Assembly (NCBI RefSeq): GCF_963676685.1
Contig: NC_092353.1
Coordinates: forward strand, 26,619,690 to 26,683,689
Origin: Mytilus edulis
Taxonomy: Eukaryota
Reading direction: 5' to 3'
DNA: 64,000 nt
This document shows, one piece after another, positions 4,070-42,339 of this stretch. Every line of letters begins with the position of its first letter. The first letter of the stretch is position 1. A model generated the notes under the pieces. The model was not told where the DNA came from. It saw only the letters and a list, made by a program, of their open reading frames with translations, and did no database searches. A program made the position numbers and the translations under genes.

Positions 4070-5460
4070 TTTCAAGTTGGTCCAAATCGGGGTCCAAAAT
4101 TAAACTTTGTTTGATTTCATCAAAAATTGATTAATTGGGGTTTTTTGATATGCCAAATCTAACTGTGTATGTAGATTCTTAATTTTTGGTCCCGTTTTCA
4201 AATTGGTCTACATTAAAGTCCAAAGGGTCCAAAATTAAACTAAGTTTGATTTTAACAAAAATTGAATTCTTGGGCTTTTTTGATATGCTGAATCTAAACA
4301 TGTACTTAGATTTTTTGTCGAGCCTGCAACTTTTGTTGCAGAAAGCTCGACATAGGGATAGTGATCCGGCGGCGGTGGCGGCGGCGGCTACGGCGGCGGC
4401 GGCGGTGTTAGCTAACTTCTTAAAAGCTTTATATTTTAGAAGGTGGAAGACCTGGATGCTTCATACTTTGTATATAGATGCCTCATGTTACGAAGTTTCC
4501 GTCAGTCACATGTCCAATGTCCTTGACCTCATTTTTATATGGTTCAGTGACCACTTGAAAAAAAAGTTCAAATTTTTTGTAATGTTGAATTCTCTCTTAT
4601 TATAAGTAATAGGATAACTATATTTGATATGTGCGTACCTTGCAAGGTCCTCATGTCTGTCAGATAGTTTTCACTTGACCTCGACCTCATTTCATGGATC
4701 AGTGAACAAGGTTAAGTTTTGGTGGTCAAGTCCATATCTCAGATACTATAAGCAATAGGGCTAGTATATTCAGTGTATGGAAGGACTGTAAGGTGTACAT
4801 GTCCAACTGGCAGGTGTCATCTGACCTTGACCTCATTTTTAGGGTTCGGTGGTTATAGTTAAATTTTTGGTGTTTTGGTCTGTTTTTCTCATACTATATG
4901 CAATAGGTCTACTATATTTGTTGTATGGAACGATTGTAAGGTGTACATGTCTAGCAGGCAGATGTCATGTGACCTTGACCTCATTTTCATGGTTCAGTGG
5001 TCAAAGTTAAATTTTTGTGTTTTGGTCTGTTTTTCTCATACTATATGCAATAGGTCTACTATATTTGTTGTATGGAACGATTGTAAGGTGTACATGTCTA
5101 ACGGGCAGATGTCATGTGACCTTGACCTCATTTTCATGGTTCAGTGGTCAAAGTTCAGTTTTTGAGTTTTGGTCTTTTTATCTAATACTATATGCCATAG
5201 GTCAACTATATTTGGTGTATGGAAATATTTTATGATCTTTATGTCAGTCGCACAGGTTTTATTTAACCGTGACCTCATTTTCACGGTTCATTGCACAGTG
5301 TTAAGTTTTTGTGTTTTGGTCTCTTTATCTTAAACTATAAGTAATAGGTCAACTATATATGTTGTATAAAAGCATTGTTAGCTGTACATGTCTGCCTGGC
5401 ATGGTTCATCTGACCTTGACCTCATTTTCAAGGTTCATTGGTCTATGTTTAGTTATCTTG
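4070..5460. repeat. Segmental duplication partner B, with a (GGC)n expansion at 4370-4410
   Basis: Collinear with 1690-2900. This copy carries an extra 'ggcggcggtggcggcggcggctacggcggcggcggcggtg' tract. Confidence 0.75.
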
Positions 5461-5629
5461 GTTAATGTTAAGTTTATGTGACAGTTGTTATAAAGCTTAG
5501 CTTTATACTTAGCACTATCAACATAATATCAATGATTAGTATAGAAGGCGAGACATTTCAGCGTGTGCACTCTATGGGCCCAGTTTTCAAGTTGGTTCAA
5601 ATCAGGATCCAAAATTATTATATTAAGTA

Positions 5630-5875
5630 TTGTGCAATAGCAAGAAATTTTCATTTGCACAGTATTCAGCAATAGCAAGAAATCTTCAATTGCACAGTAT
5701 TGTGCAATAGCAAGAAATTTTCAATTGCACAGTATTGCGCAATAGCAAGAAATCTTCAATTGCACAGTATTGTGCAATAGCAAATATTTTCAATTGCACA
5801 GTATTGCGCAATACCAAGAAATATCTAATTGCACTATATTGTGCAATAGCAAGAAATTTTCAATTGGAGTTATCT
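5630..5875. repeat. 35-bp minisatellite x7 whose units are imperfect palindromes containing a C/EBP-like ATTGCGCAAT / ATTGTGCAAT core
   Basis: Tandem units 'ttgtgcaatagcaagaaattttcaattgcacagta'. The canonical palindrome 'attgcgcaat' occurs around 5735-5760 and again around 5795-5820. Confidence 0.8.
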
Positions 5876-7010: not shown

Positions 7011-7394
7011 AAAATATAAAAATCAGTTGAAAAACCATTACTTATTGGATCGATACAAAGCATTATAAAAATCAAAAATATAACAGTTTCTCAAAAAATG
7101 GTGTTTGCTGTGGAAAAAAGATAAAGACAAATTTAAGAAGTACAAAACACTACATTTATATATCATATCACAAATATTTCCGCCTTTGTATGGTTTCAGA
7201 GGAGATGCACCTCTTTGAAATCAGTCTCTTCCTTTAGTAGTATAGATTTCATACTTCACCTCAAAAACTTGGTTTTCCCTTTAATTATAGGTTTTTAAAG
7301 GGATATATCATTCTTCCAGTTTCATACAACTAAAAGGTATCACGAATGACCTTACTTTATTGTTTATTTCATTGCATCTTTTTGTACTTCACAG

Positions 7395-7478
7395 AATAAC
7401 AGAAATTATATGACAAAAGATGCTAAAATGGCAGCAAAAATGGAAAAGAAATTAAAGATATTGCTTGGAGGTTATCAG
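7395..7478 (+). CDS. CDC5L: CDC5L-like (cell division cycle 5-like), antepenultimate coding exon
   Basis: Acceptor 'ttcacag|' and donor '|gtaatt'. It translates to NNRNYMTKDAKMAAKMEKKLKILLGGYQ. From memory, human CDC5L has ...LEKKLKILLGGYQ at this position. Confidence 0.6.
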
Positions 7479-7767
7479 GTAATTCTTACTGCTTCTACTG
7501 AAAAGATAATATTGATTTAATATCAAGTTTCAAGACGTTTAATTTATTAATCAAATGTAATAAAAGTAATCTTAAAAAAAATAATGAAAATTTGCATGAA
7601 TTTACAAATCACTTAGTTACTCTTCCTTCCAAGTACTTAATATGCAAGCAAATACTTATTTTAAATTTTATGAATCTATTGTCTTAAGATTTAAGCTCAT
7701 ATATCAATATCTGTTACTGTATATATTTGTAAGACTAGGGAATCCATAAAGAACTTTTAATAGATGA

Positions 7768-7965
<198 letters not shown>

Positions 7966-8712
7966 TAAATATAAAAAGATGTGGTATGAGTGCAAGTGAG
8001 ACAACTCTCCATCCAAGTCACAATTAGTAAAAGTAAACCATTGTAGGTCAAAGTACAGTCTTCAACACAGAGCCTTGGCTCACACCGAACAGCAAGCTAT
8101 AAAGGCCCCCAAAAATGACTAGTGTTAAACCATTCAAACAGGAAAACCAACAGTCTATAAAAAAAAAAGAAACACTTATGAAACACATCAACACCAACTT
8201 TACTTAGATATCAAAGAGAAACAATCCACAACTCTGTACATGATATAGCTGTATGAGATGTACTGATATAATGTTATAAGAAGCTAGGATTTATATATCA
8301 GCAGATGATTAAGTGTTTTATCTGTAAAGGCATACATTCTTTCAATATTGCATGAAAACATGTTTCTGTGGATTCATTGTTGCTTGAGATACAAAGAGAT
8401 TTAGGAATGCCAAAAATTAAAAAGGTTCACCTTAGTACAAATTTATTTTAGGCTTATATGCAGACTTTGAAAATTCATAATTTACAAAATATCAAGTGGC
8501 ACAACAAAAGTAAAAAAACTTAAAACTATTTTATAACATTGTTTTAACGTTCCCAAGTATTGCATTATGTTGATTTAATTGATTGTCTTGAAACTTCAAA
8601 ATGTTGTATCAAAAAGACCCCAAAACTATTTCTGGAAGGTGTATCAAAATATTAGCATTGTTCTGTGTTTTAATCTGTCAAATTATTTTATTTGCTTATT
8701 TGTTACTTTCAG

Positions 8713-8817
8713 TCCCTGACAGAAGATGTAAATAGACAACAGGAGAGAGAGAAAGAATTACAGAGAAAATACAGTGAACTCCAATATAAACAAGATATTA
8801 TCCAGTACAACAAATAA
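8713..8817 (+). CDS. CDC5L: CDC5L-like terminal exon, ending with a TAA stop
   Basis: Acceptor 'tttcag|'. Translation [34 protein letters not shown] resembles human [34 protein letters not shown] (from memory). Confidence 0.6.
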   Translation, partial: [34 protein letters not shown]

Positions 8818-11495: not shown

Positions 11496-12600
11496 TTAAC
11501 GAAGGGCTGCATCCCCATCACTAGGAGGAGGAAAAACAACCTGTTGAGCAGCAACCAAAGGCCCTAAAGAATAGAGGTTGTCACAATGAAGAGGCATGGA
11601 CCGTAAATAATGGTTATAAAAGGCACTATCAGACCTCCAAAAACCAGCTGACATGATTTCCGACATAGAGGAGGAATTAAAAATGTTCCAAGAAGAGGCT
11701 AAGGCTCTTACTTCATGTGCTTTAACTTGATGTTTAACTAAAACTTCAGAAGAAGCAGATTTATAGGCCAAAATGACAGTATTGCAAATCCAAGTAGAAA
11801 TGGTTTTGGCAGAAATGTCAGAAATTCCTTTTTTAATAGGAATAAACAACCTAGAAGAACCAGCAGATCTTAATTTCGCTGAAGAAGCTAGGTAAACAAG
11901 CAAGGCTCTCACTGGACACAAAACCTGATTATCCGATGTGGGAGGTAAAGCAGGAATAGTAATAATACCAGAACCTTTATCAGGTAACTGGTTCTTTGCT
12001 AAAAAAGATGGATCAGTGAGAAGAGTAACTGAAGACTTATCAGATGCAAAGCGGAGACAAGACTCAGAAATTGACAGAGCATGAATCTCACTCCTTCTGC
12101 GACCAGTAGCCAAAGCTATCAGAAAACAACATTTATAAGATAAAAATTTGAAGGAGGCTGAATGTAAAGGTTCAAAAGGTGAAAACTGAAGAACCTTCAA
12201 AACTAAACCTAAGTCCCAAGAAGGAACCAAACGCCTTTGACGAGGTCTATTAAGGCAAAAGTTTTTTATCAATAATGACAAAAACTCATTATCCCCAAAA
12301 TCAGAGCCTCCTGAAAGTGATATTGTTCTGGCTATGGCAGATCTATATCCCTTTATAGTAGAAGGAGAATAACCTTTCTCCTCAAAAAGGTAAAGGAAGA
12401 AATCCGCTAACTGTTGTACAGTGACAGAGAGTGGATTAATCTGCTTCGACAGACACCAAGTACAGAAGATAGACCATTTGGAGTCATAAACTGCTCCTGT
12501 AGATTGTCTGACTGATCCTGAGATACGCTTGGTTGCTCCCTCAGAAAAGCCTCCCTTTCTGAGGGAATCCCTGACAACAACCAAGCGTGCAGATGGAGAT
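11496..12600 (-). CDS. DIRS ORF3, tyrosine recombinase domain; this is the C-terminal part of the 971-aa ORF 11496..14411
   Basis: YR boxes: LIALATGRRRSEIHAL (Arg box), HQVKAHEVRALASSW (HxxR) and GFWRSDSAFYNHYLR (catalytic Tyr). Upstream of about 12600 the same frame is S/G-rich low-complexity read-through antisense to pol, so the true start is uncertain. Confidence 0.7.
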
Positions 12601-14563
12601 TCTCCAGACCTTGATGCAGTTTTCTTCCTTTGAATTGAGACAGTAGATCCTCTCTTAGAGGCAAACAAAGGGGCTTCGCACAACACAGAAGTAGTAGTTC
12701 TGGGAACCAAGACTGTCTTGACCAAGCCGGAGCAATAAGAATGGTCTTGCAAAGATCCCTCTGAATCTTGTGCAAGATCTTTGGAAGAAGACGAAAAGGA
12801 GGGAACATGTAACTGAACATTCCCTTCCAAGATAGGGTCATAGCATCTACTGCCCAAGCTTTCTCGTCTGGAATGGGAGAAACGTAAGTCTCCAATTTGT
12901 GATTCAGACTGGTGGCAAAAAGATCTATATGAGGACGATCCCAACGAAGAATGATCTCCTGAAACACTGATGGATGAATTTCCCATTCTGTGTTCACTGG
13001 AACACGGGAACGGGAGAGAGCATCCGCCAGAAGATTTTGACTGCCTGGAACATGTCTCACTGACAGAAAAATATTGAGACTGTGACACAGAAGAAGAATT
13101 TCCTTGCTCAGATGATACAGAGAAAAGGAATGGGTCCCTCCTTGATTCTGAAGATAAGCCACTACTGTGGAGTTGTCCGTGGCAACCAGTAGTGACTGAC
13201 CCTGAATCACAGCCTGAAACTGACGGAGAGAAAGAAACACAGCTCTCATCTCTAGAAGATTGATGTGTTCCTCCAACTGAGCACCTGACCAAAGGCCTGA
13301 TGCTGTCCTGCCCTCCAGATAAGCTCCCCAACCCATCAGACTCGCATCTGTGAACAAAGTTAGGCTGGGGTCTGGAGGATCCAACAAAACTCCCTTCCGA
13401 AGATGTTTTTCCTGAAGCCACCATTGAAGATGAGGTAACAACCGAGGAAGGATGGGAACAGGTGCCTCCCACAACTGAGAAATTGGATGCCAAAACTCCA
13501 TCAGATACCACTGGATTGGACGAATGTGTAGACGTCCTAGTGGAATGACGTCCATGATCGAAATCAAGAAACCCACCAGCTGAAGCAATTGACGAGCTGG
13601 GACAGATGAAAACTGAGTCAGAGCATTGACTAACTGACATACCTTGACTACCTTCTCTTCTGGAGGAAGCACTAGACCCAAATCTGTCCGAAAATGTTCT
13701 CCCAGGAAATTGAAACTCTGACTGGGAATTATCTCTGATTTTTCCCATGAAATCAAAAAACCCAGTCTCAGGAGTAAAAGGATAGACAAATTGGTGTGTT
13801 CCTCCAAAAGAGAACGGCAATGATTCTTGATGAGAGAATCGTCTAGGTAGGAATGAATGAGAACTGCCCGAGTATGAAGATACGACACCACCGTCTGAAA
13901 AATCCTGGTAAAAACTAGGGGTGCAATAGCCAGGCCAAAAGGCATAGCCTTGAAACTGTAAACCTTGTCTGCCCACACCAGTCTCAGGAAATGACGAAAC
14001 TTGTGAGAAATAGGGATGTGAAAATAGGCGTCCATCAAATCTAGAGAGGTTGTCCAAGTTCCTAAATGAATTGTCGACCTGATAGACCTGTTGGTCTCCA
14101 TTTTGAAATGTGGGACCACCAGATACTGATTGAGAACAGAAAGATCTAGAACCGGTCTCATTTTCCCGTTCTTCTTGGGTACCAAGAACAGCCGGGAATA
14201 AAACCCTAGATGAAAAGGATTTACCTCCTCCAATACACCCTTCTGAATCAGAATGTTCACTTCGTTTTGTAACAACTGATTCTTTTGAGAATCCTTTGTC
14301 ACTGACAGATTGATTGGAACAGGAGAAAGAGGAGGCTGTTCCAGAAACTGAAGTTCCAATCCCCTCCGTAAAATCGAAAGTACCCACTTGTCTGATGTTA
14401 TCAGAGCCCATTGATCTAGAAAGTGGGACAGCCTGCCCCCCACTGGAAGATGAGGAAGAGGAGAAGTATAATTTTCCTCTTCCAGTGGGGAACGATTCAA
14501 CGGAGGGGACAACACATCACTTACCCTGCTTCTTTCCCTTAACCACTTTAGCTTTCTTCCCAC
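12407..14563 (-). CDS. DIRS ORF2, pol: reverse transcriptase, RNase H and a conserved DIRS/Ngaro C-terminal extension
   Basis: RT motifs: LVPKKNGKMRPVLDLSVLN, LDLMDAYFHIPI, FKAMPFGLAIAP and the YxDD-like HSYLDDSLI. RNase H motifs: FTDASLMGWGAY, TDNSTVVAYLQNQGGT and HVPGSQNLLADALSR. Then ...IDLFATSLNHKL...YMFPPFRLL...ILIAPAWSRQSWF. Confidence 0.85.
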   Translation of the reverse strand: MGRKLKWLRERSRVSDVLSPPLNRSPLEEENYTSPLPHLPVGGRLSHFLDQWALITSDKWVLSILRRGLELQFLEQPPLSPVPINLSVTKDSQKNQLLQNEVNILIQKGVLEEVNPFHLGFYSRLFLVPKKNGKMRPVLDLSVLNQYLVVPHFKMETNRSIRSTIHLGTWTTSLDLMDAYFHIPISHKFRHFLRLVWADKVYSFKAMPFGLAIAPLVFTRIFQTVVSYLHTRAVLIHSYLDDSLIKNHCRSLLEEHTNLSILLLLRLGFLISWEKSEIIPSQSFNFLGEHFRTDLGLVLPPEEKVVKVCQLVNALTQFSSVPARQLLQLVGFLISIMDVIPLGRLHIRPIQWYLMEFWHPISQLWEAPVPILPRLLPHLQWWLQEKHLRKGVLLDPPDPSLTLFTDASLMGWGAYLEGRTASGLWSGAQLEEHINLLEMRAVFLSLRQFQAVIQGQSLLVATDNSTVVAYLQNQGGTHSFSLYHLSKEILLLCHSLNIFLSVRHVPGSQNLLADALSRSRVPVNTEWEIHPSVFQEIILRWDRPHIDLFATSLNHKLETYVSPIPDEKAWAVDAMTLSWKGMFSYMFPPFRLLPKILHKIQRDLCKTILIAPAWSRQSWFPELLLLCCAKPLCLPLREDLLSQFKGRKLHQGLENLHLHAWLLSGIPSEREAFLREQPSVSQDQSDNLQEQFMTPNGLSSVLGVCRSRLIHSLSLYNS

Positions 14564-16277
14564 TTGAATAGTTGGGACGAGAAAAAGCTGGCCTCTTCGT
14601 AGACTGTGAAGAAGAAGAAGAGGTAGAAGCCTTGGGTTGATGAGAAGACGAAGAAGAAGAAGGATTATTCATCTGAGTAGTTTTGACAAATCTTTTCCCA
14701 TCAGTGACCTTCACATCCACCTTGACTACAGGAGGGGCCTTATTCACCTCCTCCTGTAACTGCTCTAAGGAAACAGAGAACAACTTGTCCTTAGACAAAG
14801 GAGAACTGACAAGTCTCTGCTGAAGAGCTTCAGAGACAGTTGATTTTACAAGAATCTCCTGTCTCTTAGCAAGAGTAAAGTTGGCCACAGTACCAAGAAG
14901 AAGGAATTGAGACATTCCAAGACTCTTGTCTACCTGAAGCAGCATAGACCTCAAATCTGAAAATTCCTCCCCTTTGTCCTTTAACAGAGACCCAGCTGCT
15001 GACAAAAAGTGCTCAGCTGTCTCAAGAACAAAAGTCAAACACCTCAGATTATTCTCTGACTTGACATAAGAAGCTTGAGAAAGTCTGAGGCCATCCAAAG
15101 GTTTCGAACCAAGCAAACTAGAAAAAGCCCGGTCACAAGCAGGAGCCGACATACCCAAGGAAGATCCATGGATCTCAAAGTCCTTAGATCTACATCTCCC
15201 TGGATAAGAGGCAGGTCCGAAACCAGAGAACTTACTACCACCAGTTTTGCTAGTGTTAGCAAGATTCTCAGCCAGAGAAGAGTTTACAAAAGACAAAGCA
15301 GTTGTAAAGTGCCCAGACTCTGGAAAAGAATAATACCCCTTAGACTCTGGCTTGACTATACCTGAGCAAGCCATGAAATCTGAAGGAGTAGAAGAAACCC
15401 TAGGTGGAGACGACATGGGCATATCCGACATATTCCTACGAATAGAATAGACCAGACTTCTAAGGCATTCTGGGTTGCCTGAAGCAGGATCCTTAGGAGC
15501 GAAAGCATCTCCCTCTGTGCTTACTACACTATCAACATCAGAAATACCATCTTGGTCCTCCAAAAAGTTACCTTCCTGACTTCTAGGGGCCAAAGAAACT
15601 GAGTCGTCTTCCAACAACTGTCTAGGAGGTCTGGGAGGATCCTGTGCAGGATCCTGAGACAGACCCCTAGACTCCATAAGATCAAGCCTGTTACCAAATT
15701 CCAAAAACTTAGCATTAACAGTAGCTTGTATCTTGTGAATGGAGGTGGTAAGACTCCTCATCTCATCCTTAAAGGAGGATGACTCTGAAGAGGATCTACC
15801 ACCAAACCCCTGACCAGACCAAACTGATTGAGCCGAATAAGGATCAAAAGGCTGGGGATAAGGCGGCAAGTTGGGCATTCCCATAGGCATGGGAGGGTAT
15901 GCAAAATTCATGGGCCACCTAGTCCGAGAAAAGGGGTCACTCCTGATGCCAGCTGGTAGTGTCTCCTGCCTGCTTGTCGTGCAAGCCACAGGAGACGTTG
16001 GTATCTCTGCAGGCCTAGTTACGGTATGTGATACCCTGCTAGGCCTAGATAACCTCAACTGACTAGCACCAGGAGTGAAAGGCAAAGTCCTGACAGGAAC
16101 AGGTTCCGAGTCCTGTTCCAGACCGACACCAGAAACACCTGGAATAAACTCCAAACTTCTATCCCAAAATTCATCTGAATGGGTGGCCGAACGCCAAGGG
16201 GACAACAAATTACCATTGGATGTGTGAATTTGACTGTCACTTACCTCTTGGGTACCTGAAGCTGGAATTTTATCCAT
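14517..16277 (-). CDS. DIRS ORF1, gag-like, 586 aa
   Basis: First long ORF after the 5' ITR. It has a basic, S-rich C-terminus (...KKAKVVKGKKQGK) and no zinc knuckle. It overlaps the pol ORF by 47 nt in another frame, as in DIRS elements. Confidence 0.6.
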   Translation of the reverse strand: MDKIPASGTQEVSDSQIHTSNGNLLSPWRSATHSDEFWDRSLEFIPGVSGVGLEQDSEPVPVRTLPFTPGASQLRLSRPSRVSHTVTRPAEIPTSPVACTTSRQETLPAGIRSDPFSRTRWPMNFAYPPMPMGMPNLPPYPQPFDPYSAQSVWSGQGFGGRSSSESSSFKDEMRSLTTSIHKIQATVNAKFLEFGNRLDLMESRGLSQDPAQDPPRPPRQLLEDDSVSLAPRSQEGNFLEDQDGISDVDSVVSTEGDAFAPKDPASGNPECLRSLVYSIRRNMSDMPMSSPPRVSSTPSDFMACSGIVKPESKGYYSFPESGHFTTALSFVNSSLAENLANTSKTGGSKFSGFGPASYPGRCRSKDFEIHGSSLGMSAPACDRAFSSLLGSKPLDGLRLSQASYVKSENNLRCLTFVLETAEHFLSAAGSLLKDKGEEFSDLRSMLLQVDKSLGMSQFLLLGTVANFTLAKRQEILVKSTVSEALQQRLVSSPLSKDKLFSVSLEQLQEEVNKAPPVVKVDVKVTDGKRFVKTTQMNNPSSSSSSHQPKASTSSSSSQSTKRPAFSRPNYSSGKKAKVVKGKKQGK

Positions 16278-17589: not shown

Positions 17590-17609
17590 TTGGCGTCCGT
17601 CGTCGTCGA

Positions 17610-17646
<37 letters not shown>

Positions 17647-17650
17647 TGTC
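17590..17650. repeat. (GTC)n microsatellite
   Basis: 'cgtcgtcgtcgacgtcgtcgtcgtcgtcgtcgtcgtcgtcgtcgtctgtcgtcg'. Shorter GTC runs lie near 1030-1050 and 19435-19445. Confidence 0.9.
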
Positions 17651-20580
17651 GTCGTTAACAATTTTTCAAACATCTTCTCCTCTGAAACTACTGAATGGAT
17701 TTGAATGAAACTTAACATGATTGTTCCTTAGTATATCCTGCACAAAATGTGCGCTTCGATTTTTGATCCGTCAAAAAACATGGCCGCCGTTACTTAAAAT
17801 AGAACATAGGGGTCAAATGCAGTTTTTGGCTTATATCTCAAAAACGAAAGCATTTAGAGCAAATCTGACATGGGGTAAAAATGTTCATTAGGTCAAGATC
17901 TATCAGCCCTGAAATTTTCAGATGAATCAAACAAACCATTGTTGGGTTGCTGCCACTTAATTGGTAATTTTAAGGAAATTTTGCAGTTTTTGGTCATTAT
18001 CTTGAATATTATTATAGATAAAGATAAACTGTAAACAGCAAAAAAGATCAGCAAAGTAAGATCTACAAATAAGTTAATATGACCAAAATTGTCAATTGAC
18101 CCCTTAAGGGGTTATTGTCCTTTAATGACAATTTTTCACAATTTGTTCATCATATTTGCTAACTTTAAAAAATCTTCTCCTCTGAAACTACTGAATGGAT
18201 TTGGTTAAAACTTAGCATGATTGTTCCTTAGATTATCCTGCACAAAGTGTGTGCTTTGATTTTTGATCCGTCAAAAAACATGGCCGCCGTTACTTAAAAT
18301 AGAACATAGGGGTCAAATGCAGTTTTTGGCTTATATCTCAAAAACGAAAGCATTTAGAGCAAATCTGACATGGGGGTAAAAATGTTCATTAGGTCAACAT
18401 CTATCAGCCCTGAAATTTTCAGATGAATCAAACAACCCATTGTTGGGTTGCTGCCACTTAATTGGTAATTTTAAGGAAATTTTGCAGTTTTTGGTCATTA
18501 TCTTGAATATTATTATAGATAAAGATAAACTGTAAACAGCAAAAATGATCAGCAAAGTAAGATCTACAAATAAGTTAATTTGACCAAAATTGTCAATTGA
18601 CCCCTTAAGGGGTTATTGTCCTTTAATGACAATTTTTCACAATTTGTTCATCATATTTGCTAACTTTAAAAAATCTTCTCCTCTGAAACTACTGAATGGA
18701 TTTGGTTAAAACTTAGCATGGTTGTTCCTTAGATTATCCTGCACAAAGTGTGTGCTTTGATTTTTGATCCGTCAAAAAACATGGCCGCCGTTACTTAAAA
18801 TAGAACATAGGGGTCAAATGCAGTTTTTGGCTTATATCTCAAAAACGAAAGCATAAAGAGCAAATCTGACATGGAGTAAAAATGTTCATTAGGTCAATAT
18901 CTATCAGCCCTGAAATTTTCAGATGAATCAAACATCCAAACAGCAAATATGATCAGCAAAGTAAGATCTACAAATAAGTCAATTTGACCAAAATTGTCAA
19001 TTGACCTCTTTAGGAGTTATTGCCCTTTAAAGACTTTTTTCACAATTTGTTCACCGTGTTGACTTACTTTAAAAGATCTTCTCTTATGAAACTGCTGTAT
19101 CAATTTCAGCCAAACTTAGGCTAAATGAGTTTCAGAGTTTCAGAGTATCTAGTATAAATTTTATATTTCATTTCCTTGTATGTCAAGAAACATAGCTCCT
19201 ATGGCTAAAATAGAACATAGGAGAAAATGATTTTTTTTTGCTTTTGAAGAAAATAGGACGATTCAAAGAACATTTAAATAAATTGAAAAGCCAAAATAAT
19301 CATTGATGAGAGATTAAACCAAAAAAATTCAGGTGAGCGATTCAGGCTCTTGAGAGCCTCTTGTTTTAGCTCACCTGGCCCATAGCCTATAGGGCCAAGT
19401 GAGCTTTTCTCATTCATGTCATTACTTGTTGTCCGTCGTCGTCTTTAACTTTTACAAAAATTTTCTCCTCTGAAACTACTGGGCCAAATTTAACCAAACT
19501 AAGCCACAATCATCACTAGGGTATCTAGTTTACAGAATGTGTCCGGTGACCCTGCCAACCAACCAAGATGGCCGCGTTGGCTAAAAATAGAACAGAGGGG
19601 TAAAATGTAGATTTTGGCTTATATCTCTGAAACCAAAGCATTTAGAGCAAATCTGAGAGGCAGTAAAATTGTTTATATCTGCTCTGAAATTTTCAGATGA
19701 ATAGGACAACCCGCTGTTTGGTTGCTGCCCCAGATTTGGTAATTTTAAGAAAATTTTGCTGTTTTTATACGTTCGCAAAGATTGAGAATTTTTTGGTCGT
19801 ATATTGGTATCAGGTTGACGTTTATCAGGTCAAGATCTATCGGCCCTGAAATTTTCAGATGAATCAGACAATGGGTTGTTGGGTTGCTGCCCCTGAATTG
19901 GTAATTTTAAGGAATTTCTTTGTTTTCGGTTATTATCTAAAAAAAATTATTATAGATAGAGATAAACTATAGGCAGCAATTATGTTCAGCAAAGTAAGAT
20001 CTACAAATAAGTCAACATGATCAAAATGATCAGTTGATCCCTTAAGGAGTTATTGCCCTTAACAGTCATTTTTTACCAATTTTTCATAAATTTTTGTTAT
20101 CTTTTACAAAAATCTTCTCCTCTGAAACTACTGGACCAAATTTAACAAAACTTAGCCAAAATCATAATTAGGGTATCTAGTTTAAAAACTGTGTGCGGTG
20201 ACACGGCCAACCAACAAAGATGGCAGCCATGGCTAAAAATAGAACATAAGGGGTAAAATGTAGATTTTGGCTTATAACTCTGAAACCAAAGCATTTAAAG
20301 CAAATCTTACAAGGGGTGAACTTGTTTATCTAGTAAAAATATCTATCTGCCCGGAAATTTTCAGATGAATTGGACAACTGGTTATTGGGTTGCTGCCTCC
20401 CAATTGGTAATTTTAAAAGAAATTTAGTCGTTTTTGGTTATTATCTTGAATACTATTATAGATAGAGATAAATTGTAAACAGCAATAATGTTCAGCAAAT
20501 TAAGATCTACAAATAAGTCACCATGACCAAAATGGTCAGTTGACCCCTTAAGGAGTTATTGCCCTTTATAGTCATTTTTT
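17650..20580. repeat. Tandem array of ~6 copies of a ~480-520-bp unit (satellite/SINE-like) inside MVP intron 1
   Basis: Recurrent 'aatcttctcctctgaaactactg...atggccgccgttacttaaaatagaacataggggtcaaatgcagtttttggcttatatctc...gttgggttgctgcc...agatctacaaataagt...' at about 17660, 18165, 18670, 19060, 19450 and 20100. Confidence 0.8.
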
Positions 20581-22884
20581 AACATTTTTCATTAATTTGG
20601 TAAATTTTGCAATCTCTGTAAACTAAAGGGCCAAGTTCATTACAGAAAGAGAAAATTGTAAGTAACAAAAATGATCAGTAAAGTATGATCTACAAACACA
20701 TCACCATTACCAAACCACAATTTTGTCATGAATCCATCTGTTTCCTTTGTTTAATATGCACATAAACCAAGGTGAGCGACACAGGCTCTTAAGAGCCTCT
20801 AGTTAACAATTTTCATAAATTTTGTTAATTTTGTAATTTTATTAAAATTTATTCGTTTATGATATGCACATAGACCAAGGTGAGCGACACAGGCTCTTTA
20901 GAGCCTCTAGTTCTAGGAAAAAATTGGTTGATTATATAGGGAATCACTGAAGCTTGACCAGAGCTGGCCCCCTTTTGGGCAGTCAGTGGGCCCCGACTTA
21001 TGAAAATTTCTTGATCCACCACTGCAGTTTGGTATTAAGTTAACCACTTGGTGACACTTTCCCTAATACAAAGTTAACAATAATAAGTTTTAAAAGAAGA
21101 AGAATAGTTAGGCCTTGAGATATCTTAAATTGGCACTAGCTACGAGAAAAATCAAATAAGATTTTGTTTGGTTTAACCTTAAGTCAAATTAAGCAATGAA
21201 ATATCGCTGATGAATTACTATAAATTCAGAAATTATTGCGTGCATTTATTAATGCAATTTTGTCATTTTAGACTTAAATACGATTTTAATTGGTACGATT
21301 TTGAGAACAATCCTGTTTATAGATATAGGAAGATGTGGTATGAGTGCCAATGAGACAACCCTCCATCCAAATAACAATTTAAAAAAAGTAAACCATTATA
21401 GGTCAATGTACAGCCTTCAACACGGAGCCTTGGCTCACACTGAACAACAAGCTATAAAGGGCCCCAAAATTACTAGTGTAAAACCATTCAAACGGGGAAA
21501 ACCGACGGTCTAATCTATATAAATGGACGAGAAACGAGAAACATGTATAAATTACATAAACAGACGACACCTACTGTACATCAGATTCCTGACTTAGAAC
21601 AGGTGCAAATATTTGCAGCGGGATTAAACGTTTTAATGGTACCAAACATTCTCGCTTTTTCTGAAACAATTACATAACATCACAACATAGAAAAACATAC
21701 GATAAAATATCAATTGGCAGGCTCAACTCAATCAAAAAACGTAAATTAATACACTATGAACGAATAAATTTGATCTGCGATATCTGAATGTAAATGCACA
21801 GTTAATAAAATATTAGGGATAAACATTCAGGGCCAAAAAGCAAACAAATAAGTCCAAACAAAGCCATAGCAAGACACCACTGTGAAATATTTAACCCTAC
21901 GAAAATTATCACATTTGAAAAAAAAACCGGTTTTATTAATACAGGTAAATCATGAAGTTTATACAAATGTAGTGAAAATTAGAAGATATTCCAAATAATC
22001 AAATAATCAAAGCTGGTATATAGACAAGTTCCATATTAATATAAAATAACAAAAAGGCATTATATAAACAGTATAATTCATATTAAATATTTCACAACAA
22101 GAGTTTGAATTATTGCGTTTACAACTCTGATTTGTACTTAATATTTTGGTACAGAAATAATACAATATTCCTTGTTTGAAAATCATAACTTTAAGAGATT
22201 TGGAATAGAAAAACTTTCAAAATGCTGAAATGTAACGGAAGTAACCAAAAATCTGTAGTACCTAAATTTCAAGTACAAAAACATTTTATTATAAAATTTA
22301 ATCTTTTTTGTAGCTAAATGTGCCTACTTGTCACTAATAAGTGATAGACAAATTTGTTTTAGGTGTAATACAATTTGTACCACCAAATCATGGTACGTCA
22401 CATCCGGTTGTATACGAAAGTAGGTCTAAAAAAATATTCCCTTGAATTTGACAGTTAGTTGTAAGTAATTTATCCTACATTTTATTGCAGTAAAAATATT
22501 TCTGTGTCATAAACATATGTCTTTGGTATTTCAAAACACCATTATTTTTTATTTGGTATTTCTATAGAAAACCTTGAGGTTACATGGTGACTAAACCTTG
22601 TACACAGATAAAATAAGGGGAGAAATTTGATTGGTTAACTTCCAATGATGGTTATTTTCTTATATGCAATGAAATGTTATGTGAATTTTTTTCTATAGTA
22701 CTGGACAGGATAAAACTTTACTCATGCCAAGTATTTCTTTATTTGAAACAACAAATTCTGCACATTTTTTTGAAAAGTGCAAATTTAACAAAGACTAATA
22801 GGGGAAAATCAATGGTGGTATTACACCTAATTAAGAAGCCAAAGTGACACGATCATTTTAAAATTGTATATACAATATTTTCAG

Positions 22885-23018
22885 ACAACTAATATTACAA
22901 GGATAGAAATAGGTCCACAGACCATTGTATTGAAGACAAATGAAAACTTTGTGGCTGGTCCATTACCTATGATAGTTGTTGCACCAGGATGTTATTGTGT
23001 AGTCCATAATCCTGTCAG
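22885..23018 (+). CDS. MVP: MVP exon 2
   Basis: Acceptor 'ttttcag|', donor 'gtcag|gtatgt'. TTNITRIEIGPQTIVLKTNENFVAGPLPMIVVAPGCYCVVHNPV resembles human [38 protein letters not shown]. Confidence 0.8.
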
Positions 23019-23905
23019 GTATGTATTGTGTAGTCAATAATCCTGTCAGGTATGTATTGTGTAGTCCATAACCCTGTCAGGTATGTATTGTGTAGTCCAT
23101 AACCCTGTCATGTATGTATTGTGTAGTCCATAACCCTGTCAGGTATGTATTGTGTAGTCCATTATCCTGTCAGGTATATATTGTGTAGTCCATAACCCTG
23201 TCAGGTATATATTGTGTAGTCCATAACCCTGTCAGGTATATATTGTGTAGTCCATAATCCTGTCAGGTATGTATTGTGTAGTCCATTACCCTGTCATGTA
23301 TGTATTGTGTAGTCCATAACCCTGTCAGGTATGTATTGTGTAGTCCATTATCCTGTCAGGTATATATTGTGTAGTCCATAACCCTGTCAGGTATATATTG
23401 TGTAGTCCATAACCCTGTCAGGTATATATTGTGTAGTCCATAATCCTGTCAGGTATGTATTGTGTAGTCCATTACCCTGTCAGGTATGTATTGTGTAGTC
23501 CATAACCCTGTCAGGTATGTATTGTGTAGTCCATAACCCTGTCAGGTATGTTTTGTGTAGCACTGTGTTGTGTAGTCCATAACCCTGTCAGGTATGTTTT
23601 GTGTAGCACTGTGTTGTGTAGTCCATAACCCTGTCAGGTATGTATTGTGTAGTCCATTATCCTGTCAGGTATGTATTGTGTAGTCCATAACCCTGTCAGG
23701 TATATATTGTGTAGTCCATAATCCTGTTAGGTATGTATTGTGTAGTCCATTACCCTGTCAGGTATGTATTGTGTAGTCCATAACCCTGACAGGTATGTAT
23801 TGTGTAGTCCATAACCCTGTCAGGTATGTATTGTGTAGCACTGTGTTGTGTAGTCCATAACCCTGTCAGGTATGTATTGTGAAGTCCATAACCCTGTCAG
23901 GTATA
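23000..23905 (+). repeat. 31-bp minisatellite, ~29 copies, derived from the last 27 nt of MVP exon 2 plus its GT donor
   Basis: The unit 'gtatgtattgtgtagtccataaccctgtcag' starts inside exon 2 and every unit carries 'cctgtcag|gtatgt'. There are variant units with 'gtttt' or 'cactgtgttg' inserts. Confidence 0.9.
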
Positions 23906-24221
23906 TATTGTTTAGTCTTAAACATTCTTGTTCCAGATTGTGCTAAGACAAGTGAAATTTATGTGGCTAATGTATTGACGAGATTGTCTACATGATTTAT
24001 TTCACTAGTTATATATATATCTGTTTTAAGCTCCCACTGCATCAATTGGCGATTTGATGGTCGCAAATTAAGTTTACTGGCAAAGTGTTAGCAACTGGGG
24101 ATAATAACTCTAAATCTCTCTCACCAATTTTCATAAAATGTTGGTGAATTGTTTATATCTATTGACATAACGTTGCTGTTATGCAAAAGTCTTGTATCTC
24201 AATTTTTTGCGGAAATCTTTT

Positions 24222-24585
24222 TATCGATTAATTAGAATTAAATATGTATCTTCCACTGTATGCGAAAATATCTGATCTTCTAACCAATCATTAACCCGAA
24301 TTCTGACATGTGACGAAAAAGTGTAGTCGGATTGGTGAGACATTTTGTTGTGCAAAAATATCGTATCTCAAAAGAAAAACACATGGCACGGCAGCTGACA
24401 TTATAACAGGTACAGTTTTATCAATTTTAGGTTCTAATATAGCTTAGAAATAATGAAAAGCTTTGAAAAAACAATATAGGTGCAGAAATTTTTGCTCGTC
24501 TTGGTAATTGATTGGTTAGAAGGTATATTTTTGCATACAGTGGAACATACATATTTAATTCTAAATAATCGATAAAAAGATTTCA
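24222..24585. mobile_element. MITE-like non-autonomous element with ~75-bp terminal inverted repeats
   Basis: 24222-24300 'ctttttatcgattaattagaattaaatatgtatcttccactgtatgcgaaaatatctgatcttctaaccaatcattaacc' is the reverse complement of 24508-24585. Confidence 0.65.
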
Positions 24586-24890
24586 GTTTTTATGCCCCAC
24601 CTACTATAGTAGAAGGGCATTATGTTTTCTGGTCTGTGTGTCCATTCGTCCGTCCGTTCGTTCGTCCGCCTGTCCCGCTTCAGGTTAAAGTTTTTGGTCG
24701 AGGTAGTTTTTGATGAAGTTGAAGTCCAATCGACTTCAAACTTGGTACACATGTTCCCTATGATATGATCTTTCTAATTTTAATGCCAAATTAGAGATTT
24801 TACCCCAATTTCACGGTCCACTGAACATAGAAAATGATAGTGCAAGTGGGGCATTCGTGTACTGAGGACACATTCTTGTTACTGCCTGTT
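24586..24890 (+). repeat. SINE-like repeat ('ttttatgccccacctactatagtagaagggcattatgttttctggtctgt...ccccaatttcacggtccactgaacatagaaaatgatagtgcaagtgggg')
   Basis: Homologous copies at 41160-41440 and 41625-42240; the latter has an internal ~125-bp x3 tandem. Confidence 0.7.
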
Positions 24891-25437
24891 GTAAAATTAT
24901 CAAAACCTTAGATACAAGGTTTTTGCATAACAGCAACGATAAGCTTCTTTTGATTTTTATAAAATTATAGATTTTATGTTTATAATTTTTTGATTTTCCA
25001 AAATTTTAGATTTTATGTTTCTAAGTTATGGATTTTATTTATAAAAAAATGGGGGGTTTTATATCACCGTACAGCCTTCAACTACATGTATAAGCAAAGC
25101 TCATACAGGATAGTCAGCAAATTCATTTAAAGTATAGAAACAAGCTGAAAAGGCGACAGGGGTGTCATGGGCTTATGCCTTTGCTCTTTGTCTTATAGGT
25201 AATTATTTATCGTGCTATGTATTAATCCTTTTGGTCCAAAGACTAATGTAATGAAATATTTTTTCTATAAATTTATTTTTGACATCAATTGCCATTGCTT
25301 AGACATGATGAAAACAAAACTGAAAGTTTATCATTATGGAAACAGTTCAATCAATCTTCTTTAATCTGGTTTAACGTATTGTATAAAGTTTGTGTTGAAT
25401 GTCTTCTTTAATTTACAAATTTTGATGTTTATTTCAG

Positions 25438-25501
25438 CAATTATGTTCCTGGTCAGGCATGTGAAATTAGATTTGGAGAGAAAGATATCCATTTCCATGA
25501 G
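25438..25501 (+). CDS. MVP: MVP exon 3
   Basis: Acceptor 'tttcag|', donor '|gtaaga'. (S)NYVPGQACEIRFGEKDIHFHE corresponds to human ...TGQVRLRHADLEIRLAQ. It is about 9 aa shorter than vertebrate, so a small missed exon in 23019-25437 cannot be excluded. Confidence 0.7.
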
Positions 25502-28669: not shown

Positions 28670-29225
28670 GTATGAATTTATATCAAACACGGTTCTTTAA
28701 GAATATAAATGGCACCTTTTAAATCTGTAAAAACTTTATTTACTCATTTCAATAAATATTAATTTGTTTGTTTTTACATAGTCCAAGAAACCAGGTAATC
28801 TGGAGAAAAATATTTGTATAGCATGATTTTGATTGTTGTTATGTTTTACATATAAAAAAGAAGATGTGGTATGATTGCCAATGAGACAACTGTACACAAG
28901 AGACCAAAATGACACAAAAATTAACAACTACAGGTCACAGTATGGCCTTCAACAATGAGCAAAGCCCATACTGCATAGTCAGATATAAAAGGCCCCGAAA
29001 TGACAATGTAAAACAATTCAATGACAAAACTAACGGCCTTATTTGTGTATATTTGTATATAGATATAAGATGTGGTATGAGTGCCATAAGACAATTCTCC
29101 ATCTAAGTCACAATTTATAAAGGTGAACTCATTATAGGTTTAAGTATGGTACCTGATTTATAATATAATATGCAAATAAAAATCTTTGTATTATTTCTGT
29201 ATTTTGATAAATATGTATTTTCCAG

Positions 29226-29292
29226 ACTTGCTGGTGAAGAATGGTTGTTGACCAGTGAAACAACTGATGAATATTACCCTGAAATTGGTGTG
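29226..29292 (+). CDS. MVP: MVP exon 8
   Basis: (R)LAGEEWLLTSETTDEYYPEIGV resembles human [25 protein letters not shown]. Confidence 0.85.
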
Positions 29293-36078: not shown

Positions 36079-36158
36079 CTGGTAAACCAAAGAAATGTGA
36101 TGCTATGAGATCACTGTGTTTAATGTTAGGACCAGACTTTATCACTGATATCATTGAG
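36079..36158 (+). CDS. MVP: MVP exon 17
   Basis: (A)GKPKKCDAMRSLCLMLGPDFITDIIE resembles human [29 protein letters not shown]. Confidence 0.9.
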
Positions 36159-36179
36159 GTAAACAGTTTTCTTTAAAAC

Positions 36180-36900
36180 TATACCATAAAGATTCACACA
36201 GTTTCTATTTATACCAAAAAGGTTCACGCAGTTTCTATTTTACACCAAACAGGTTCACATTCCTTCTCTTTTGCACCATAAAGATTCATACCGTTTCTCT
36301 CTCACACCATAAAGGTTCACACTCTTTCTCTTTTACACCATGAAGGTTCAAACACTTTCTCTTTTACACCATAAAGGTTCACACACTTTCCCTTTTACAC
36401 CATAAAGGTTCACACACTTTCCCTTTTGCACCATAAAGATTCACACAGTTTCTATTTTACACCATAAGGGTTCACACAGTTTCTGTTTTACACCTTGAAG
36501 GTTCTCTCAGATTCTGTTTTACACCATAAAGGTTCACACAGTTTCTCTTTTCCACCATAAAGGTTCACACAGTTTCCCTTTTGCACAATAAAGATTCACA
36601 CAGTTTCTATTTTACACCATAAGGGTTCACACAGTTTCTGTTTTACACCTTGAAGGTTCACACAGATTCTGTTTTACACCATAAAGGTTCACACAGTTTC
36701 TGTTTTACACCATAAAGGTACACATCTTGTCTTTTTTACACCATTAAGGTTCACATTCTTTCTTTTTTACACCGTTATGGTTCACATCCTTTCTCTTTTA
36801 CACATTGAAGGGTCACATTATTTTTCTTTCACACCATAAAGGTTCACACCTTTTCTCTTTTACACTATAAAAGTTTATACCCTTTACAACATCTTTTAAT
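36180..36900. repeat. ~30-bp minisatellite x ~24 ('accataaaggttcacacagtttctcttttac') in MVP intron 17
   Basis: Direct tandem periodicity. Confidence 0.9.
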
Positions 36901-39480: not shown

Positions 39481-39707
39481 ATCAATAGAAGCCTCAGCAT
39501 CCCACGAAGCTAGCAGAAATGAACAAATAGCCAGAGGTCAACTTGAACGACAGAAATTGCTTAATGAAATGGATTCTGAGAAAGAAAAGACAAAGTTATT
39601 AGAATTACAAGCTATCACTGCCGCCGTGGAATCTACTGGTCAAGCTAAAGCTGAGTCACAAGCACAGGCTGAGAGAATGCTAATAGAGTGTGAAAGCGAA
39701 ATAGAAT
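39481..39707 (+). CDS. MVP: MVP exon 22, coiled-coil
   Basis: ...RGQLERQKLLNEMDSEKEKTKLLELQAITAAVESTGQAKAESQAQAERMLIECESEIE resembles human [54 protein letters not shown]. The donor 'gaat|gtaagt' at 39708 is then tandemly reiterated downstream. Confidence 0.85.
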
Positions 39708-40270
39708 GTAAGTCAAGCTAAAGCTGAGTCACAAACACAGGCTGAGAGAACGCTAATAGAGTGTGAAAGTGAAATAGAATTAATGTAAGTCAAACACAAG
39801 CAGAGGCTGAGAGAATGCTGATAGAATGTGAAAATGAAATAGAATGTAAGTCAAACACAAGCCGAGTCACAAACACAGGCGTAGAGAATTCTAATAGAGT
39901 GTGAAAGTGAAATAGAATGTAAGTCAAACACAAGCACAGGCTGAGAGAATGCTTATATAGTGAAAATGAAATAGAATGTAAGTCAAACACAAGCCGAGTC
40001 ACAAACACAGGCTGAGAGAATGCTAATAGAGTGTGAAAGTGAAATAGAGTGTAAGTCAAACACAAGCAGAGGCTGAGAGAATGCTGATAGAATGTGAAAG
40101 TGAAATAGAATGTAAGTCAAACATAAGGCAAGTCACAAGCACAGGCTGAGAGAATGCTTATATAGTGAAAATGAAATAGAATGTAAGTCAAACACAAGCC
40201 GAGTCACAAGCACAGGCTGAGAGAATGCTAATAGAGTGTGAAAGTGAAATAGAATGTAAGTCAAACACAA
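39640..40270 (+). repeat. Tandem repeat of 61/73-bp units derived from the 3' end of MVP exon 22 plus its splice donor, ~8 copies
   Basis: Each unit reiterates '...caggctgagagaatgctaatagagtgtgaaagtgaaatagaatgtaagtcaa...'. The first unit is the authentic exon end and donor. Confidence 0.9.
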
Positions 40271-40980
40271 GCTTAATATAAAAGCCGAGAAAAAAAACCC
40301 CTTAAATTTAATTGGATTGTATAATTCTTTTATCTGTTTAATGTTATTTGGAGTTTCATAAGTTCAATGTAATAAAAAAGCAAATTTTATTCAATGGTTG
40401 AACACATTTGTATAAAAAAATAAAATGAATATTATATGATCAATTGATTGTTGGTGTTTAACATGACTTTTAGCTCTCTTAGCTATATTTTGGCAGACAG
40501 TTTTTATTTGGTGAGGAATCTGTAGATAACCACAACGTTTGACACGATAACAGGCAATTCTAATCAATTTAGATTGGAGTTAGACAAACTGCTACATACA
40601 GAGTTTAAATTCATAACCTCAGTGTTGACAAGCTAGTAATGTAAATAAACAATTAAAATTTCTTGACCCCTGAGGCCAAAAATATATTTGAATTGATCCT
40701 TCCAAACTATCAGCAGTTCTGTGAACCAACCCTACAAACCTTACAGCAGTCATGTTAAACAGAACACAATCTTATGATAAATACAGTTGATTGTTCTTTG
40801 CCTAAAAATATCACTTTGTCCAACCAGGATATGGCGACCCATAGTTTAGTTGGTGACGATAAAAAGACATTTGCTTGTTTTTATCAAAATACAATATACA
40901 TATCATTAAAATTGTCTGAAATGAACTCAAGTTTTTAACGTTATTCCATATAATACTAATGCTTAAAATCTGTATTACAG

Positions 40981-41045: not shown

Positions 41046-42339
41046 GTAAGTTTATAGATTATTTTTGAAAAAAGATCAAACTATTAAGAATTTATTAAAT
41101 GTTAAGTATTTTTTCACTTTGTTCATAATCCTAAGAACCCGTAAACTTTTAATATTTATGATATTATTACAAACATTTATGGGCATTATGTTTTCTGGTC
41201 TGTGCGTCAGTCCGTTCTTCCGTCCAGTCATCTGTCCTGCTTCAAGAAAGTTTATGGTCGAGGTAGTTTTTGTTGAAGTTGAAGACAAATCTACTTGAAT
41301 CTTTGTATACATGGTCCCTGTGATATGATCTTTCTAATTTTAATGCCAAATTACAGTTTTGACCCCAATTTCACAGTCCATTAAACATAGTAAATGATAG
41401 TGCGAGTGGTAGCATCTGTGTACTATGGTCACATTTTTGTTCATAATTCTTTTAAACATACTTTAATATTGATTGCTCATGACATGCATATCATTGGCAA
41501 TCATACCACATCTTCTTTTTTATATATCATACACTGGTAGTGCAGCAATTTATCAAAATTGTCTTGAATTTATTGGGACCTGAAGATGTTTCCATGCTTA
41601 TCTATAATAAGAAGTTACATATACAATTCATTTTTATGCCCCACCTACGATAGTAGAGGGGCATTATGTTTTCTGGTCTGTTCGTCCGTCCGTTCGTTCA
41701 GGTTAAAGTTTTTGGTCAAGGTAGTTTTTGATGGAGTTGAAGTCCAATCAACTTCAGACTTAGTACACATGTTCCCTATGATATGATCTTTCTAATTTAA
41801 TTGCCAAATTAGACTTTTGACCCCAATTTCACGGTCCGCTGAACATAGAAAATAATAGTGCAAGTTTCAGGTTAAAGTTTTTGGTCAAGGTAGTTTTTGA
41901 TGAAGTTGAAGTCCAATCAACTTCAAACTTAGTACACATGTTTCCTATGATATGATCTTTCTAATTTAATTGCCAAATTAGACTTTTGACCCCAATTTCA
42001 CGGTCCACTGAACATAGAAAATAATAGTGCAAGTTTCAGGTTAAATTTTTGGTCAAGGTAGTTTTTGATGAAGTTGAAGTCCAATCAACTTCAAACTTAG
42101 TACACATGTTCCCTATGATATGATCTTTCTAATTTAATTGCCAAATTAGAGTTTTGACCCCAATTTCACGGTCTACTGAACATAGAAAATGATAATGCGA
42201 ATGGGGCATCCGTGTACTATGGACACATTCTTGTTATTTTTGTGTCGTATAATGGTATGATGTTGTCGTAGTCGTCCAAAGACGCATTTAGTTTCCAGAC
42301 AATAACTTTAGTTTTAGTGAATGGATCTCTATAATTTGT

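Follow-up and report, generated by a model that had tools for sequence, protein, structure and literature searches.

How can a tandem array that reiterates the end of a coding exon together with its 5′ splice site arise inside a gene, and how can the gene tolerate it? This question is raised by a 64,000-nucleotide stretch of Mytilus edulis DNA (RefSeq assembly GCF_963676685.1, contig NC_092353.1, positions 26,619,690 to 26,683,689 of the forward strand), hereafter termed the window, whose own numbering is used below unless another locus is named. The window carries the major vault protein (MVP) gene, and intron 2 of this gene opens with a 31-bp minisatellite made of the 3′ end of exon 2 and the donor site that follows it. 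The array is very probably a young minisatellite of variable copy number (variable number tandem repeat, VNTR), which originated from a short direct repeat lying across the exon 2/intron 2 boundary through slippage or unequal exchange. The elements on which this reading rests are the following.

22992 to 23917, plus strand: 31-bp minisatellite, comprising 28 full units, 3 truncated units and 1 terminal partial unit
22885 to 23018, plus strand: MVP exon 2, 134 nt, codon phase 2 at its end
23019 to 23024, plus strand: authentic 5′ splice site of intron 2 (cag/GTATGT), the upstream-most donor copy, supported by the ortholog mRNA join
23019 to 25437, plus strand: MVP intron 2, 2419 nt
23147 to 23518, plus strand: higher-order block of six units (186 bp), in which 23147-23332 is duplicated at 23333-23518 with 99.5% identity (EFFGHC / EFFGIC)
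23905 to 23917, plus strand: terminal partial unit of 13 nt (ATATTGTTTAGTC), orthologous to the proto-repeat copy found at the intron start in sister species

Organization of the 31-bp array

Tandem Repeats Finder (TRF) places 27.6 copies of a 31-bp period at 22985-23838 (88% matches), resumes the array at 23842-23911 and reports 46-bp variant blocks at 23518-23652. When cut by hand in register, the array resolves into 28 full units of 31 bp (22992-23904) and three identical units truncated to 15 bp, at 23550, 23596 and 23828, whose presence accounts for the 46-bp variants. In unit 1 (22992-23022), the final 27 nt of exon 2 are followed by the first nucleotides of intron 2 (…TTATTGTGTAGTCCATAATCCTGTCAG/GTAT…), and each of the remaining units repeats 25-26 nt of the exon end followed by GTATGT. 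A preliminary description of this DNA, made from the letters alone, had proposed that the minisatellite is built from the 3′ end of MVP exon 2 and its 5′ splice site, with a unit that starts inside the coding exon and carries the donor. TRF, hand cutting and the gene model agree on this composition, unit 1 spanning the exon 2/intron 2 boundary. Two of its figures need correction: the GT donor copies number 28 (one authentic and 27 intronic) instead of about 29, and the recurring exon part before each donor measures 25-26 nt instead of 27 nt.

The unit is private to this place. A 28-nt unit probe allowing up to three mismatches yields 28 matches, all within the array, with 0 expected in shuffles, and neither the rest of the 64-kb window nor the six related loci fetched contain a match to the 31-bp unit. 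The units share a mean pairwise identity of 94% and fall into 13 types, arranged in the order ABCDCEFFGHCEFFGICCJJECKILCJM. The distribution of the unit types, together with the 186-bp block repeat, is the signature of a stepwise duplication of units and blocks. The longest open reading frame (ORF) in the array, on either strand, does not exceed 58 aa.

The MVP gene and the age of intron 2

The gene model was obtained by tblastn with Mytilus MVPs, mapping of an ortholog mRNA (the spliced Mytilus coruscus contig L001, Logan SRR13891792) and refinement of GT-AG junctions. Two further features belong to it.

16660 to 44935, plus strand: MVP gene, coding part, with 26 exons, GT-AG introns throughout and an intact 854-aa ORF
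25438 to 25501, plus strand: MVP exon 3 (SNYVPGQACEIRFGEKDIHFHE), supported by tblastn, ortholog mRNA and junction refinement

The predicted protein is identical to the RefSeq M. edulis MVP (XP_071133808.1) at 854 of 854 residues and to the M. galloprovincialis protein at 852 of 854. Translation of 22885-23019 gives TTNITRIEIGPQTIVLKTNENFVAGPLPMIVVAPGCYCVVHNPV(R), which corresponds to residues 21-64 of mussel MVPs and 21-65 of human MVP, and the joining of exon 2 to exon 3 at 23018/25438 is exact in the mapping of the M. coruscus mRNA. The location of exon 2 at 22885-23018, on which the preliminary description relied, is thus upheld by the translation, the 854-aa ORF and the ortholog mRNA join.

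Exon 2 of the oyster Ostrea edulis (locus L005) is also 134 nt long, shares the same phase and ends with …CCCTGCAG/GTCAGA, and the majority of exon lengths in the oyster gene equal those of Mytilus. The codon position and phase of intron 2 are constant in Ostrea edulis and in every Mytilus species examined. Because its position, its phase and the length of the preceding exon are common to the oyster, intron 2 is, on this comparison, ancient, and the array lengthened an old intron rather than creating one. Likewise, the exon came first, since the unit codes for a conserved stretch of MVP (YCVVHNPV) and the oyster has the same exon boundary.

The junction in related Mytilus genomes

The orthologous loci of M. 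galloprovincialis (L002, GCA_965363235.1) and M. trossulus (L003, GCA_036588685.2) were compared with the window, together with a second M. edulis assembly (L006, GCA_905397895.1). Intron 2, 2419 nt long here, is shorter in both sister species (M. galloprovincialis, 1056 nt; M. trossulus, 916 nt). The array is found neither in the M. galloprovincialis nor in the M. trossulus locus, where the junction is single-copy, nor in the second M. edulis assembly, which is of lower quality and noisy at exon 2. In that assembly, exon 2 (L006 22330-22461) retains 82% identity, with frameshifts, stops and no donor, and the other MVP exons are 96-100% identical, except exon 19 (91%, partial match). This exon 2 may be a product of noise in the local assembly, or else belong to a degenerate, null allele of MVP.

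The state from which the array grew can be recognized in the sister species. The ancestral junction comprises about 1.6 units: exonic CAGGATGTTATTGTGTAGTC has an echo, CAGGTAkGTATTGTTTAGTC, 31 nt further downstream, where the intron starts, and this partial second unit is present in both M. galloprovincialis and M. trossulus. The M. galloprovincialis junction (CAGGTAGGTATTGTTTAGTC) matches exonic CAGGATGTTATTGTGTAGTC 31 nt upstream at 16 of 20 positions, whereas the best of 108 other offsets reaches 10 of 20. The diagnostic T of the sister-species junction also occurs in the partial unit that closes the M. edulis array (ATATTGTTTAGTC). The proto-repeat of about 1.6 units may either predate the species split or represent the remnant left after a contraction. 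Judged from these assemblies, the expansion to 28 units is confined to the haplotype in the window and is recent and variable, because the other assemblies carry only the 1.6-unit proto-repeat. The expectation that the array would vary in length is supported, as two sister species and another M. edulis assembly lack it.

Donor copies and the predicted outcome of their use

27 intronic pseudo-donors follow the authentic donor, and a single stop codon governs the outcome of their use.

23050 to 23906, plus strand: span of the 27 intronic pseudo-donors (first GT at 23050, last at 23901)
23038 to 23040, plus strand: TAA stop, in frame after any downstream donor (predicted end ...NPVRYVLCSQ*)

The 28 donor-type GTs comprise 17 cag/GTATGT (authentic site included), 8 cag/GTATAT, 2 cat/GTATGT and 1 tag/GTATGT. 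Relative to the authentic 9-mer, 16 of the 27 intronic copies are thus identical, eight carry G>A at +5, two carry G>T at -1 and one carries C>T at -3. On a position weight matrix (PWM) trained on the 25 donors of the MVP gene itself, the authentic donor and its 16 exact copies score 11.47 (gene mean 9.8, minimum 6.3), and a score of 10 or more is reached by just 2 of the 1229 other intronic GTs of the gene.

Computed from the sequence, use of a downstream donor would add 31n nt to exon 2 and lead to the TAA within 7 codons. The preliminary description had expected MVP to be truncated by any downstream donor, on the grounds that the unit length is not a multiple of three and that the unit contains TAG. 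The period of 31 bp is indeed not a multiple of three and the truncation holds, but the stop is the TAA at 23038-23040, the TAG of the unit being out of frame. Only the first donor gives the intact and conserved 854-aa ORF, and it is this donor whose junction appears in the RefSeq model and, as its homologue, in the spliced M. coruscus mRNA. A protein search with the 71-aa peptide made of exon 1, exon 2 and the read-through returns no candidates, and exact look-ups of the window ORF at 22864-23040, as well as of P0017, P0001, P0127 and P0008, find nothing on record.

The folding of the region was also considered. Masking of the pseudo-donors by RNA structure is rejected, the fold of 22960-23180 being ordinary (z = -1.33).

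Other junction-anchored arrays in bivalve MVP genes

The intron 2 array is one of several arrays anchored at splice junctions of MVP in mussels and oyster. Two others lie in the window.

39639 to 40272, plus strand: exon 22 array, nine copies of 59-77 bp, each made of at most ~67 nt from the end of exon 22 (39481-39707) and GTAAGT
36152 to 36875, plus strand: intron 17 array, 22.4 copies of 31 bp, intron 17 starting at 36159

The exon 22 array keeps GTAAGT intact in 9 of 9 copies (the exon end and eight further ones), and use of its downstream donors would give …EIECKSS*. It counts 9 copies here and 4.8 in the second M. edulis assembly, against ~11 in M. galloprovincialis and 2.2 in M. trossulus. 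The intron 17 array, which sets in 25 nt into the intron and has a higher-order period of 155 bp, counts 22.4 copies in both M. edulis assemblies, 25.4 in M. galloprovincialis and 7.9 in M. trossulus. In alignments of its "zeroth" unit, the exon 17/intron 17 junction does better than shuffles (4/2000) and than all 24 other junctions, and the donor-homologous positions of the array are degenerate (GTTCAC), with PWM scores of at most 3.2 in all species. A kinship between the two 31-bp arrays of introns 2 and 17 is rejected: their consensus units, compared by eye without alignment, share just AGGT, and the equal period appears coincidental.

Further cases come from single species. In M. trossulus, a 47-bp x 27 array (L003 29219-30492) begins inside exon 21 (29162-29262) and repeats the last 40 nt of the exon with GTAAGTC; M. 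edulis and M. galloprovincialis lack it and have an intron 21 of just 308 nt. A proto-repeat at offset 47 is unsupported for this array (9-10 of 20), and exon 21 shows only a short donor-like exonic echo (TAAGTAAATC vs TAAGTAAGTC). The M. coruscus model P0001 (CAC5421282.1) carries, at residues ~310-330, an in-frame 21-aa insert (LGKLELRIGCSSFFLHPGKLK) that appears to combine the end of exon 9, a donor that is read through and a second copy of the exon end, and that is homologous to the end of exon 9 in the window (30019); it may represent one more duplicated junction or else an annotation trap. The arrays of the oyster MVP gene are independent of those of Mytilus and involve both kinds of splice sites.

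L005 11784-11994: donor-spanning array of exon 8, 37 bp x ~6
L005 14125-14272: donor-spanning array of exon 11, 58 bp x 2.5
L005 14954-15044: donor-spanning array of exon 13, 45 bp x 2
L005 13212-13533: acceptor-anchored array, 44 bp x 7.4, ending at the exon 10 acceptor
L005 22501-22598: acceptor-anchored array, 49 bp x 2, across the exon 22 acceptor

Under a post hoc class definition, in one gene and in non-independent species, the MVP genes of four bivalves hold 8 donor-spanning arrays (6 independent origins), versus 2.7 expected under uniform random placement, and 1 acceptor-spanning array versus 2.6 expected, one more case having escaped the overlap rule. This excess of donor arrays in bivalve MVP is suggestive. 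The neighbouring gene CDC5L, taken as a control, shows no junction arrays. It holds a 35-bp x 6.9 minisatellite (AGTATTGTGCAATAGCAAGAAATTTTCAATTGCAC) at 5626-5866, deep in an intron and off any junction; the AGTATTGTGCAATAGCAAGAAATTTTCAATTGCAC unit represents a dispersed element, since the second M. edulis assembly has it again in MVP intron 23 (L006 40056-40157). Junction anchoring is therefore not universal.

Origin and presumed tolerance of the array

Altogether, these findings lead to a model in which a pre-existing direct repeat of about 1.6 units straddles the exon 2/intron 2 boundary, and in which the segment between the two proto-copies expanded to 28 units in the haplotype of the window, singly at first and later by block duplication. 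At the level of the compared genomes, the local origin from the junction, the proto-repeat in relatives, the stepwise growth and the difference in copy number are all demonstrated. The first unit being contiguous with exon 2, the donor at 23019 would stay functional, and the other 27 donors would be spliced out with intron 2. By analogy with intron 7 of human F7 (F7 IVS7), the first donor is presumed to be used and the array to be tolerated, since the spliceosome would prefer the upstream-most of identical donors and thereby yield the normal 134-nt exon. Leakage to downstream copies would lead to the early TAA, and the resulting transcripts would be expected to be cleared by nonsense-mediated decay (NMD). 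The array would then have no dedicated function, and would represent a near-neutral or slightly costly by-product of a minisatellite-prone genome and gene. Young arrays keep their donors and the old intron 17 array, shared by three species, has lost them, which speaks for decay or purging rather than functional maintenance.

Several points weigh against this account. The lack of the array in the second M. edulis assembly is weak evidence, since exon 2 is noisy there. Donor choice in array-bearing M. edulis is deduced from the ORF, the RefSeq model and the M. coruscus mRNA. In addition, 16 pseudo-donors match the authentic site in strength (PWM 11.5, above the gene mean), so that some leakage is likely; leakage to donors 2 and 3 is plausible because IFI6 and CBS, discussed below, use two proximal pseudo-sites, and such transcripts would be out of frame, with a premature stop 7 codons in, and likely NMD substrates. 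Finally, pure neutrality does not explain the excess of donor arrays (8 vs 2.7).

This excess has a bearing on a broader reading, which appears rather doubtful, namely that bivalve genes, or at least MVP, are biased towards junction-seeded minisatellites that copy a splice site, or that such arrays have a U1-recruiting function. It is based on 6-7 independent donor-anchored and 2 acceptor-anchored arrays in one gene of four species. The bias could be mutational, through slippage where an exon echoes its own donor or through an instability coupled to transcription or splicing, or it could be selective, if arrays of intact 5′ splice sites recruit the U1 small nuclear ribonucleoprotein (U1 snRNP) and modulate expression.

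That selection favours donor arrays as such, the array being functional and its strong 5′ splice sites serving as a landing pad for U1 snRNP, is unlikely. The array could in this case enhance the upstream donor, keep the AT-rich intron from being cleaved and polyadenylated prematurely, or adjust MVP output via regulated, NMD-coupled unproductive splicing. Such a role would fit the 16 of 27 copies that keep a 9-mer identical to the authentic donor, the exon 22 array with its nine intact GTAAGT and its occurrence in all three Mytilus species, and the excess of donor arrays in four bivalves with none in CDC5L. However, the array is dispensable, since two sister species and the other M. edulis assembly have an intact MVP without it, and a young array (94% mean unit identity) would show intact donors anyway. 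Furthermore, the old intron 17 array has dead donors in all species, the acceptor-anchored arrays of the oyster suggest a general tendency to junction duplication and not a U1-specific role, and the supporting statistics are post hoc and drawn from a single gene.

An assembly artefact, in which repeat misassembly would have created the array or its length, is very improbable. The array is seen in one of the four Mytilus assemblies examined, and the exon 2 read-through ORF is not on record in other assemblies. Yet assemblers tend to collapse arrays rather than create them, and the array bears an ordered history (13 unit types, the 186-bp block at 99.5% identity, three identical truncated units). 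Its flanks are also collinear with the orthologous junction and intron, and sister arrays recur across independent assemblies, as does the intron 17 array with 22.4 copies in both M. edulis assemblies.

That a tandemly duplicated exon segment containing AGGT created the intron or made it slide (Rogers model) can practically be set aside: the unit does contain CAG/GT, the exon has a CAGGATGT echo and duplication-born introns are documented (PMC3265369, PMC2891723, PMC4974935), but such an origin of the intron is refuted by the conservation of intron 2 position, phase and exon length in Ostrea edulis and Mytilus. A transposon-borne or dispersed satellite inserted beside exon 2 is hardly credible, for although the window is rich in satellites of 147-169 bp associated with transposable elements (TEs), the unit is made of exon 2 and the local intron start, is confined to the array in the 64-kb window and six related loci, and has its pre-expansion state visible in sister species.

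Implications

Under the preferred reading of a young junction-born VNTR, the locus provides a natural experiment in 5′ splice-site choice, with 17 identical strong donors, each in 25-26 nt of shared exonic context. Array-less alleles and sister species would allow the upstream-most rule of F7 to be tested in a mollusc over 0.9 kb, along with the cost of unproductive splicing. The MVP arrays, i.e., those of exon 22, intron 17, M. trossulus exon 21 and the oyster, can be read as a time series in which VNTRs arise, expand and lose their donors. There are hints that arrays in bivalve genomes are preferentially seeded at splice junctions; if the bias set out above were true, the intron 2 array would be one instance of an undescribed genome-wide process extending introns from their 5′ ends. 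The array is likely to be a hypervariable marker, and also a trap for gene predictors, as suggested by the donor read-through of the M. coruscus model P0001.

Genomic neighbourhood of the MVP gene

The last three exons of CDC5L, which encodes the pre-mRNA splicing factor CDC5/CEF1, lie upstream of MVP on the plus strand (7392-8814), and an older M. edulis annotation fuses CDC5L and MVP into a single 1565-aa model (P0125). The intergenic spacer is ~7.8 kb long here versus 2.4 kb in M. galloprovincialis. It contains a retrotransposon on the minus strand (11496-16277) that lies ~380 bp upstream of the MVP start codon and has three long overlapping ORFs, one of which carries RVT_1 and RT_RNaseH domains. 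The C-terminal part of its 971-aa ORF looks tyrosine-recombinase-like (DIRS-type) by eye, with no hit in Pfam. Because the spacer is longer than in M. galloprovincialis, this insertion is probably lineage- or haplotype-specific.

Satellite-like arrays of 147-169 bp, in 2-5 copies, occur at 1061-1686, 2134-2818, 4676-5454, 41697-42198 and 43576-43893, within a CDC5L intron and MVP introns 23 and 25. Related copies exist in the sister-species loci, and these arrays are probably TE-associated bivalve satellites. MVP intron 1 contains a (CGT)19 microsatellite at 17598-17655. At the distal end of the window, a perfect 32-bp x 3 repeat (62004-62100) is followed ~1.3 kb downstream by an ORF (63429-63785) with a weak match to the MBOAT family (26.1 bits, just under the cutoff), which is possibly the exon of an acyltransferase gene at the window edge.

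Relation to known exon/intron boundary minisatellites

The preliminary description regarded the tandem amplification of an exon-intron junction as unusual. This is overstated, since human genes provide an established class of boundary minisatellites with reiterated 5′ pseudo-sites, represented by F7, IFI6 (6-16), CBS, LMNB2 and PDGFA (PMC1557585), and since such amplification recurs at other MVP junctions in bivalves. In F7, intron 7 carries a polymorphic 37-bp VNTR of 5-9 units, each with 4 nt of exon and the donor TGG/gtgggt (Borensztajn et al. 2006, PLoS Genet, PMC1557585). Experimentally, the IVS7 pseudo-sites are functional yet silent, the upstream-most site being selected (PMC1557585). 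IFI6 intron 2 counts 25 pseudo-sites and CBS intron 13 has 15-20 repeats; both genes also use the next two pseudo-sites (PMC1557585). In LMNB2 (100 bp x 10-15) and PDGFA intron 4 (81 bp x 16-18), the authentic donor alone is used (PMC1557585).

The mussel array belongs to the F7 IVS7-type class, with four of the five defining features present. Its units are of minisatellite size and arranged head to tail, its first monomer lies across an authentic exon/intron boundary, its donor is reiterated in the intron, and copy number varies between relatives, 28 units here contrasting with a single-copy junction in other Mytilus assemblies. The fifth feature concerns mature mRNA, in which the upstream-most donor would be used and the pseudo-sites would be silent or minor. 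F7 resembles it in the position of the first monomer, in the identical pseudo-sites that follow the authentic donor and in the variable copy number; it differs in that the mussel has 28 units of 31 bp, each with 25-26 nt of exon and a strong donor, that of F7 being weaker, and in that splicing, demonstrated in F7, is deduced in the mussel. IFI6 and CBS share with the mussel array their large runs of reiterated donors. CBS has the same period of 31 bp. The proximal pseudo-sites used in IFI6 and CBS are a point of difference, as any such use in mussel MVP would be out of frame.

Introns born by duplication (Hellsten et al. 2011, PMC3265369; Drosophila and potato, PMC2891723, PMC4974935) likewise involve a tandem copy of a splice-site segment of which one copy of each site is used. 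There, a new intron is derived from an exon, whereas in the mussel pseudo-donors were added inside an ancient intron.

No report of an array at the MVP locus, or of boundary arrays in bivalves, was found in the literature. LMNB2 and PDGFA offer boundary-spanning arrays whose unit sizes are near those of the mussel exon 22 array (59-77 bp). They are vertebrate cases with one array per gene, whereas mussel and oyster MVP have several per gene, and it is this, a single gene with several independent junction arrays at different stages of their life cycle, that the mussel case adds to the class.

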